Of a DNA stretch of 64,000 nt, positions 15,894 to 18,324 are shown one piece after another. The DNA comes from Escherichia coli. GTDB lineage: Bacteria > Pseudomonadota > Gammaproteobacteria > Enterobacterales > Enterobacteriaceae. Location: assembly GCF_036507355.1 (NCBI RefSeq), contig NZ_AP027877.1; one strand, written 5' to 3'. The notes below the pieces were generated by a model that saw only the letters and a program-made list of their open reading frames with translations, was not told the DNA's origin and made no database searches. Each line of letters begins with the position of its first letter. Position 1 is the stretch's first letter. A program made the position numbers and the translations under genes.

Positions 15894-16358
15894 ATGAATT
15901 ATCATCAGTACTATCCTGTCGACATCGTCAACGGCCCCGGCACTCGCTGCACCTTGTTTGTCTCCGGGTGTGTTCATGAATGCCCCGGTTGCTATAACAA
16001 AAGCACCTGGCGGGTAAATTCTGGTCAGCCCTTTACCAAAGCAATGGAAGACCAGATCATTAACGATCTGAATGACACTCGTATCAAACGCCAGGGGATT
16101 TCCCTCTCCGGCGGCGATCCGCTGCATCCGCAAAACGTGCCGGATATTCTGAAACTGGTAAAACGCATCCGCGCCGAGTGTCCGGGTAAAGACATCTGGG
16201 TGTGGACAGGCTATAAACTCGACGAACTCAACGCTGCGCAAATGCAGGTTGTTGATTTGATTAACGTACTGGTCGACGGCAAATTTGTGCAGGATTTAAA
16301 AGACCCTTCCCTGATCTGGCGCGGCAGCAGCAATCAGGTGGTGCATCATTTGCGATGA
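15894..16358 (+). CDS. nrdG: Anaerobic ribonucleotide reductase activating protein (radical SAM)
   Basis: 154-aa ORF with Cys cluster (GCVHECPGCYN), downstream of nrdD. Confidence 0.95.
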   Translation: MNYHQYYPVDIVNGPGTRCTLFVSGCVHECPGCYNKSTWRVNSGQPFTKAMEDQIINDLNDTRIKRQGISLSGGDPLHPQNVPDILKLVKRIRAECPGKDIWVWTGYKLDELNAAQMQVVDLINVLVDGKFVQDLKDPSLIWRGSSNQVVHHLR

Positions 16359-16362
16359 TAAG

Positions 16363-16394
16363 TTCCCTGTTACCTGAGTGCAGGCAACAGGGAA
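16363..16394. terminator. Bidirectional hairpin terminator between convergent nrdG and cybC
   Basis: TTCCCTGTT...AACAGGGAA inverted repeat in the 44-bp convergent gap. Confidence 0.6.
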
Positions 16395-16402
16395 ATGAGG
16401 AA

Positions 16403-16792
<390 letters not shown>

Positions 16793-16971
16793 TCACTTCC
16801 TTTTTTATTTACACTTCATCCTTCACACTGCCTCATCGACGGCTACGCTCATTCGCCCGGGTCACGTACTGCGAGTACGCTCCCCGGCCCTCATTCACTT
16901 TCCGTCTCGATGCAGTGCGAATGATTTTGTGTAATTTTTTAGTTTATAGCGCGGCAGGTCGCGCCAGTTTT

Positions 16972-18324
16972 TTACTGCCCGGCGATTTTCATCTCCGGCA
17001 ACAGCACAGAACCACACTGTATATTACTGCGTGTTTCAATATCGTTACCGACGGTGACAATATTGCGCCACATATCTTTTAAATTACCTGCGATGGTGAT
17101 TTCACTAACGGGATACTGAATTTCGCCATTCTCTACCCAGAAGCCCGCTGCACCACGGGAATAATCACCGGTAATGGCACTCACGCCCTGGCCCATCAGC
17201 TCCGTCACCACCAGCCCGGTGCCCATCTCTTTGAGCATTTGTTCGAAGCTTAGCCCTTGTCCGGCAATCCGCCAGTTGTGAATACCGCCCGCATGTCCGG
17301 TGCTTTTCAGCCCCAGTTTCCGCGCCGAGTAGCTGGTCAGCAGCCACTGAGTCAGGATGCCATCTTTAATAATATCGCGACGCTCGGTGCGCACACCTTC
17401 GCTGTCGAATGGCGTCGACGCCAGCCCTTTCAGCAGATGCGGATGCTCTTCAATGGTCAGCCAGTCCGGCAGAATTTGTTTACCCAGCGAATCCAGCAGA
17501 AAGGTAGATTTACGGTAAACCGAGCCACCCGCTATCGCCCCCACCAGATGGCCAAAAAGCCCGGTTGCCACTTCATTGGCAAAAATGACTGGCGCTTTCA
17601 TGGTGGAGAGTTTACGCGGTGACAGGCGCGATAAAGTACGGCGAGCACAGTCGGCCCCGACCCACTCTGGCGTTTGCAGATCGCTCATCGCGCGGCCAAT
17701 GGTGTAGGCGTAATCACGCTCCATATCGCCATTTTCTTCGGCAATTACACAGCTGGAGAGCGAATGACGCGTTGAGCAGTAACCCTGCAACATGCCGTGG
17801 CTGTTGCCAAAAACTTTGACACCGTAGTGGCTGTTAAAACTGCCGCCTTCGGTATTGGTAATGCGTTTGTCCGCCTGCAATGCCGCCTGTTCTGCGCGGG
17901 CCGCCAGTTCAATGGCTTCATCCGGGGAAACTTCAGCAGGGTGGAACAAGTCGAGATCTGGTGCGTCAAAGGCCAGCAGCTCTTTGTCTGCCAGCCCGGC
18001 ACAGGGATCTGGCGAGGTATAACGGGCAATATCCAGCGCCGCCTGTACAGTACGGGCAATGGCCTGCGGGCTTAAATCGGTGGATGATGCGCTACCTTTG
18101 CGGTTCTGGTGATAAACAGTGATCCCCAGCGCGCCATCGCTATTGAATTCAACATTCTCCACTTCACCATAACGCGTGCTTACGCTAATGCCGGTGGTCT
18201 TGCTGACGGCAACTTCCGCACCGTCCGATTTGCCTGAGGCCAACTCCAGCGCAGTGGAAACTGCTTCTTCCAGAATCTTGCGCTGCGCTTCAACTTGAGA
18301 GATTACTTTCATTGCAAGTGCCAT
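16972..18324 (-). CDS. pmbA: Metalloprotease PmbA (TldE)
   Basis: 450-aa ORF; the true start may be the internal MKVISQ a few codons downstream. Confidence 0.93.

Follow-up and report, generated by a model that had tools for sequence, protein, structure and literature searches.

What are the two short inverted repeats that lie between pmbA and cybC in this stretch of Escherichia coli DNA (64,000 nucleotides, hereafter the window)? An earlier note, made from the sequence alone, had left them unexplained and pointed out that the second resembles a plus-strand terminator although the genes on either side read from the minus strand. Both repeats are present, at 16865-16879 and 16949-16964, and cybC and pmbA are indeed both carried by the minus strand. 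The setting is as follows:

15894-16358, plus strand: nrdG
16403-16789, minus strand: cybC (cytochrome b562), downstream gene of the pmbA-cybC unit, in the intact 128-aa form with signal peptide
16790-16971: the pmbA-cybC gap, 182 bp, 3′ of pmbA and 5′ of cybC
16972-18324, minus strand: pmbA/tldE (metalloprotease subunit), upstream gene of the pmbA-cybC unit

The reading that we favour, with a probability of about 0.8, is that the gap is the intercistronic spacer of a minus-strand pmbA-cybC operon and holds an ERIC element together with a relic pmbA terminator, that is, two stem-loops of different origin.

Comparison with about 5425 complete E. coli genomes distinguished three alleles of the gap. 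The long allele, which is that of the window, has the 182-bp gap with the ERIC; the 401 bases around the hairpins are 100% identical in several bovine and human E. coli isolates. The short allele has 54 bp between pmbA and cybC and no ERIC. The K-12 allele is the long allele minus 26 bp (equivalent to window 16771-16796). This deletion, seen in MG1655, BW25113 and J53 (L001, L005, L009), takes out the cybC start codon and part of the ribosome-binding site, and cybC is therefore a pseudogene in the MG1655 record. In other K-12 records, annotated automatically, cybC is called as a shortened gene of 366 nt. When presence or absence was assigned by identity bands, the ERIC was present at this locus in 3884 and absent in 1547 of the 5431 matching records from these genomes. 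The 182-bp and 54-bp alleles, which surround an otherwise identical pmbA-cybC pair, could provide a natural test of the effect of an ERIC on a bicistronic mRNA. In one mouse isolate (E. coli strain S1, L003, 753-1436), an IS1 is inserted in the gap. Small ORFs spanning the gap were rejected as mechanical artefacts with nothing backing them, and an Rfam scan of 16300-17100 at E <= 10 returned noise only (two matches, mir-51 and sR30).

The first repeat lies inside a larger element:

16808-16935, 128 bp, transcribed copy on the minus strand: a diverged full-length ERIC/IRU (RU-1) miniature inverted-repeat element, as identified by alignment and profile
16865-16879, minus strand: hairpin 1, CGTACT-GCG-AGTACG, the apical stem-loop of the ERIC

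ERIC repeats, 127 bp long, were described by Sharples & Lloyd 1990, Hulton et al. 1991 and Wilson & Sharp 2006 (passages in PMC2759123 and PMC2229807). The reference used here is the 127-nt E. coli ERIC consensus quoted in PMC2759123. The published orientation corresponds to the plus strand of the window, and the pmbA-cybC mRNA carries the reverse complement. A blastn search of the window with the consensus alone gave no match (genome-size statistics, word size down to 7), and the identification took pairwise alignment, paralogous copies and a profile. The element is collinear with the consensus over consensus positions 3-125, with 84/124 identical bases (68%); the alignment scores 85, a value to be compared with 32 at most for shuffled sequences (n=300). 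With an nhmmer ERIC model excluding the copies of the pmbA-cybC locus, the element was recovered end to end (envelope 16808-16935, E = 2.1e-16). A model built from the consensus and other-genus copies only still gave a full-length match (E = 5.7e-4). By these measures 16808-16935 is an ERIC element.

The copy shares with ERIC/IRU/RU-1 elements its length of 128 bp, its single long stem-loop, its terminal inverted repeats (TTACAC / GTGTAA), its intergenic position within a transcription unit, and the occurrence of several copies per genome with presence/absence differences between strains. It differs from them by its 68% identity, by the absence of the ERIC2 site and by its degenerate terminal TA dinucleotides. 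The terminal dinucleotides are TT and AT, not TA, and the flanks differ between the ERIC-free and the filled alleles, which bears on target-site duplication. The core is recognisable yet altered (CGTAC...GTACG versus CTTAC...GTAAG), and the ERIC2 primer has no match in the window with up to 3 mismatches, nor a match in the fetched loci. A conserved central core and the ERIC-PCR primer sites are a trait of typical copies and no requirement for membership.

Full-length relatives, 70-77% identical to this copy, were found at acpH-queA, puuC-puuR and gppA-rhlB, and the acpH-queA copy has the classical ERIC core. With the diverged pmbA-cybC copy as query, the median E. coli genome had 3 detectable places. 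The copies at cybC-pmbA, acpH-queA, puuC-puuR and gppA-rhlB have common ends, ACACTTCATCCTTCA...GAATGATTTTGTGTA, unlike the E. coli ERIC consensus (E. coli copies compared in L006, L007 and L008, at about 800-930). This suggests that the four copies may form a distinct ERIC sub-group.

The ERIC is a 128-nt imperfect palindrome. As RNA, its minus strand folds at -63.8 kcal/mol (z = -9.0) and its plus strand at -44.7 kcal/mol (z = -5.3). The family alignment gives a consensus structure of 27 pairs, 9 of which show compensatory changes. Hairpin 1 folded alone has z = -1.1 to -1.6, within chance for its composition. A repeat search extends its arms to 16857-16870 / 16874-16887, and in the family alignment the apex helix (columns 59-63 paired with 69-73) is conserved. 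Its pair 60-72 is G-C in the three Escherichia copies at the locus and U-A in the family, a compensatory change. Hairpin 1 therefore gains its significance as the tip of the 128-nt palindrome. Neither repeat is left unexplained: the first is the apex of an ERIC that the profile finds at E = 2.1e-16, and the second, detailed below, is a conserved stem-loop of pmbA.

No ERIC element is annotated in the RefSeq records inspected, and a diverged copy such as this one escapes BLAST with the consensus, so that anyone reading raw sequence is bound to come upon such palindromes anew. Full-text literature searches pairing ERIC with cybC or pmbA turned up nothing relevant, and the pmbA-cybC ERIC locus is missing from the supplements of PMC2267715. 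ERIC elements and terminator-derived stem-loops have long been known. What is found in the gap removes an 'unexplained' label and is of little importance beyond annotation.

Published K-12 data were then used to place the repeats on transcripts. In MG1655 the genes are on the plus strand (tldE 4457959-4459311, cybC pseudogene 4459488-4459855), and the ERIC copy corresponds to about 4459349-4459476. SMRT-Cappable-seq (PMC6131387, Supplementary Data 1) reports a unit running from a TSS at 4457944 to a TTS at 4459900 and fully covering b4235 and b4236. Its TSS has 105 reads, of which 17 end at the TTS, 7 end <=50 bp downstream and 11 run beyond. In K-12, pmbA and cybC are co-transcribed, and the same would hold for the window strain. 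The supplements of PMC6131387 contain no coordinate in 4459300-4459499, so that the gap contains no reported start or end.

A TRS re-analysis (PMC10687069, Supplementary Data 2) gives a sense 3′ terminus at 4459461-4459476, dominant at 4459472, called in one re-analysed dataset among those listed, and a second sense 3′ terminus at about 4459899, past cybC. Through the MG1655 sequence (L009), the first of these corresponds to window 16823-16808, with the dominant position at 16812:

16808-16823, minus strand: last bases of the 3′ arm of the sense-strand ERIC stem, counterpart of the mapped K-12 RNA 3′ end

In K-12 an RNA 3′ end thus lies at the ERIC base, and a similar end may exist in the window strain. 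Adams et al. 2021 give no 3′ end for pmbA or cybC in the table rows listed. The transcript data all come from aerobic K-12 cultures, and K-12 has the ERIC together with an untranslatable cybC. Because the 26-bp deletion abolishes cybC translation, the K-12 3′ end at the ERIC base might in part reflect Rho-dependent termination in untranslated cybC followed by trimming, and would then perhaps be absent in the window strain.

A further hairpin, TTCCCTGTT...AACAGGGAA, is found at 16363-16394, between the convergent nrdG and cybC. The K-12 cybC transcript ends map just past it (MG1655 about 4459899-4459900), with a poor U-run, CUUAUCAU; on the nrdG (plus) strand there is no U-run at all.

The favoured reading of the gap as an operon spacer brings in one more feature:

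16790-16809, minus strand: conserved block with the leader and Shine-Dalgarno sequence of cybC, AAUAAAAAAGGAAGUGAGCA, immediately 5′ of its AUG and adjoined by the ERIC

We propose that pmbA and cybC would form one transcription unit on the minus strand of the window and that the ERIC would have inserted downstream of the hairpin left from the old pmbA terminator and ahead of the conserved cybC leader. Transcribed within the operon mRNA, the element would fold into a stable hairpin of about -64 kcal/mol. By analogy with other ERICs and REPs, such a hairpin may act as a barrier to 3′-to-5′ exonucleases and as a processing landmark, and the barrier would give the pmbA message a defined, protected 3′ end. 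The ribosome-binding site of cybC would be left free: the predicted fold of the intergenic RNA does not pair the leader block. The analogy draws on passages describing the role of ERIC in Yersinia and of REP in operons (PMC2229807, PMC3184786, PMC10969869). The transcribed strand folds better in 8 of the 10 ERIC copies of known orientation, but the E. coli consensus is already biased (-61.8 kcal/mol for the reverse complement versus -45.2 kcal/mol), which makes this strand preference weak evidence for selection at this copy.

According to passages on De Gregorio et al. 2005, Yersinia ERICs modulate mRNA decay (PMC2229807, PMC3184786, PMC10969869); in that model the effect is orientation-dependent and involves an RNase E site in a terminal repeat, whose exposure is presented in PMC2229807 as induced by ribosomes. 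Like them, the pmbA-cybC ERIC is co-transcribed between two genes of one transcript and would form an RNA hairpin. In contrast to them, the E. coli element starts 36 nt past the pmbA stop, with hairpin 2 in between. If the Yersinia model needs the element near the upstream stop, the terminating ribosome should be out of reach of this ERIC. In Citrobacter, Salmonella diarizonae, Enterobacter asburiae, Kosakonia and Phytobacter, on the other hand, an ERIC does adjoin the pmbA stop, in the opposite orientation.

The second repeat lies between the ERIC and pmbA:

16947-16966, minus strand: hairpin 2, sense U-GGCGCG-ACCUGC-CGCGCU-A, a conserved intercistronic stem-loop
16968-16974, minus strand: pmbA stop UAA (16974-16972) and the following sense A-run, the complement of which is TTTTTTA on the plus strand

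Hairpin 2 begins 7 nt past the pmbA stop codon. On the sense strand it has 7 pairs and folds at -11.1 kcal/mol. The outermost pair of the window allele is G-U in the sense RNA, but reading the plus strand gives an A-C mismatch instead. Within 8 nt past the stem, the sense strand has 2 U (window allele) or 3 U (short allele), without a U-run in either.

To follow hairpin 2 outside E. coli, the pmbA locus was compared in 80 Enterobacteriaceae species. cybC lies downstream of pmbA, on the same strand, in 79 of the 80, with a gap of 28-70 nt in most, and about 45 of the 80 have a GC-rich hairpin located after the pmbA stop and ahead of the cybC leader. The orthologues of hairpin 2 have a sense-strand U-run (>=5 U) in about 15 species, and a U5-U8 sense tail in Franconibacter, Leclercia, Silvania, Siccibacter, Atlantibacter and Pluralibacter gergoviae. 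Judged by their form, the U5-U8-tailed hairpins of these genera are textbook intrinsic terminators of pmbA. An alignment of 21 species gave hairpin 2 a covariation score of 0.252, versus 0.126 in shuffles, and none of 500 shuffles attained it; this alignment was anchored on predicted hairpins, which favours structure. The loop-closing pair is G-C, A-U, C-G or U-G and is never broken. Hairpin 2 therefore gains significance through its conservation across genera with covariation. Chance inverted repeats were also considered for the two hairpins, and are excluded by the ERIC family membership of one and the cross-genus conservation of the other.

Hairpin 2 resembles intrinsic terminators and REP-type stabilising stem-loops in being GC-rich and in lying a few nt past a stop codon; REPs in operons were presented as stabilising stem-loops by Higgins et al. 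1982 (in the passages of PMC3184786). It also resembles intrinsic terminators through its orthologues, which bear a true-terminator U-run in other genera. It differs from them in Escherichia, where only 2-3 U are found in 8 nt, transcripts pass and no 3′ end is reported. The orthology and the covariation are observed; we infer from them that hairpin 2 is probably the relic stem-loop of an ancestral pmbA Rho-independent terminator whose function would have been lost in Escherichia. With its sense U-run gone, it would no longer stop the polymerase efficiently, and cybC would be expressed by read-through. The terminator look of the plus strand would be a by-product of the stop codon and A-run just 5′ of the hairpin.

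The same conservation can be turned towards another reading, according to which hairpin 2 is a sequence-specific regulatory RNA, a site of protein or RNase binding or of cleavage, that sets the cybC:pmbA ratio. E. coli shares the 18-nt GGCGCGACCTGCCGCGCC, its 6-nt loop ACCUGC included, without any difference with six species from five other genera (loci sharing it: L018, L024, L070, L073, L081, L086), whose pmbA third-codon identity to E. coli is only 54-63%. This sequence occurs without a U-run in E. coli, Citrobacter amalonaticus, Citrobacter sp. R56, Yokenella, Trabulsiella and a Pluralibacter. A loop of NCCUGC type is kept in about 26 species, and 16300-17100 matches no Rfam family. Such exact conservation of the loop across genera exceeds the need of a decayed terminator and counts against viewing hairpin 2 as one. 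On the other hand, the counterpart of hairpin 2 is lost in Enterobacter and in the Klebsiella oxytoca group, and elsewhere an unrelated loop is followed by a plain U-run; this pattern suits a generic terminator or stabiliser more than a specific site that is essential. Such a site has no known partner, and no processing site appears among the published 3′-end table rows listed. We consider a regulatory site of this kind unlikely.

The resemblance of hairpin 2 to a plus-strand terminator, from which the earlier note had suggested an antisense or small-RNA terminator, concerns its other strand. Hairpin 2 would then be a plus-strand intrinsic terminator, antisense to pmbA and cybC, for example a backstop against read-through from the convergent nrdDG or the end of an antisense RNA before it reaches pmbA. 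The shape is real. GCGCG-GCAGGT-CGCGC at 16949-16964 is followed by CAG, T6 (16968-16973) and ACTG, and this form of the window allele, a GC stem, CAG and U6, fits a plus-strand terminator. A pattern scan detected 3 terminator-like sites in 800 bp versus 1.2 expected and flagged hairpin 2 on the plus strand, where the terminator-like shape is found in both alleles. The short allele has it in canonical form on the plus strand: a 9-pair stem directly adjoined by U6, with -17.6 kcal/mol and z = -3.8. The nrdG-cybC hairpin at 16363-16394 lacks a plus-strand U-run, which makes it conceivable that nrdDG read-through reaches hairpin 2 under anaerobiosis. Expression of nrdDG is expected to be low in the aerobic cultures that were the only source of transcript data.

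Against a plus-strand terminator in the window allele, the stem has only 5-6 pairs, lies 3 nt from the U-run and folds at -8.7 kcal/mol with z = -1.25, and 18 of 200 shuffles fold equally well. A scan detected no promoter-like site upstream on the plus strand. At the positions equivalent to hairpin 2 (MG1655 44593xx), no 3′ end on either strand appears among the rows listed in Adams 2021, the TRS re-analysis and SMRT-Cappable-seq, so that a plus-strand transcript ending there is missing from the published aerobic K-12 rows listed. The homologous loci, moreover, show a terminator hairpin in the pmbA sense. The A-run after the pmbA stop, from which the plus-strand tail derives, is found in Escherichia only, with a length that is not fixed (TAA is followed by 3-5 A in L010-L013; K-12 has one A more than the window), whereas the hairpin itself is conserved family-wide. 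A plus-strand role therefore cannot explain the conservation of the hairpin. The plus-strand T-run overlaps the pmbA stop codon (TTA at 16972-16974) and, read from the sequence, is only the complement of that stop codon and of the Escherichia-specific A-run. The plus-strand terminator is thus unsupported, and we hold it to be quite improbable.

The notion that the repeats are DNA-level operator or promoter palindromes of cybC, bound by transcription factors, keeps in its favour their position upstream of cybC, the palindromes typical of operators and a weak -35/-10-like pair of the short allele (GCGACC, 17 nt, CATAAT) that we read over the hairpin and leader, below scan threshold, but it is very improbable given that palindrome 1 is fully accounted for as a member of a dispersed repeat, that scans detected no sigma-70-like promoter site in the gap of either allele, and that SMRT-Cappable-seq has no coordinate in the gap and covers cybC by the transcript from the pmbA promoter. 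Of the cybC promoter region put forward in the earlier note, the location upstream of cybC thus stands, while the gap has no reported start and cybC shares its transcript with pmbA.

Besides the conserved loop of hairpin 2, what is mildly interesting in an operon spacer holding an ERIC and a relic terminator is the independent occupation of the same spacer by ERICs across genera, in both orientations. An ERIC of opposite orientation adjoins the pmbA stop in Citrobacter sp. Res13, Salmonella enterica diarizonae, Kosakonia sp. S29 and two Phytobacter species. The Enterobacter asburiae spacer also has an ERIC in the opposite orientation adjoining the pmbA stop, with a further nested insertion. 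In several Citrobacter and Lelliottia species, only both ERIC ends remain, the middle being deleted. The loci are:

L020, L030, L036, L059, L063, L065, at about 3354-3580 each: spacer ERIC in the opposite orientation
L014, L017, L019, L025, L040, L043: ERIC remnants

This distribution points to at least two independent ERIC insertions, in opposite orientations, into one short spacer: one in Escherichia, the other in Citrobacter, Salmonella, Enterobacter, Kosakonia and Phytobacter. It could be imagined that the 18-nt stem-loop, unchanged across genera although synonymous sites are near saturation, is an undescribed, sequence-specific cis-regulatory RNA of the pmbA-cybC operon and the spacer a recurrent ERIC landing site, a combination that we find unlikely. 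If it were true, selection might use ERIC hairpins to retune cybC expression as the terminator decays.

Inserts other than ERIC fill gaps of 100-230 bp elsewhere (L021, L023, L052, L057, L048-L051). To our reading, those of L052 and L057 look REP/BIME-like, and other palindromic inserts are found in L023 and in the Raoultella loci. The gap of 218 nt in L021 is an artefact of start-codon choice, its sequence already including the cybC start.

On the other side of the spacer, the cybC leader block is nearly invariant in almost all of the 79 cybC-carrying loci. The 20-26 nt that immediately precede the cybC start, (T)AATAATAAAAAAGGAAGTGAGCA, are almost invariant in about 70 species of many genera (L010-L089). 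In species that keep AATAATAAAAAAGGAAGTGAGCA, the identity of the CybC protein drops to 60-70%, and the conservation of this block exceeds the need of a Shine-Dalgarno sequence alone.
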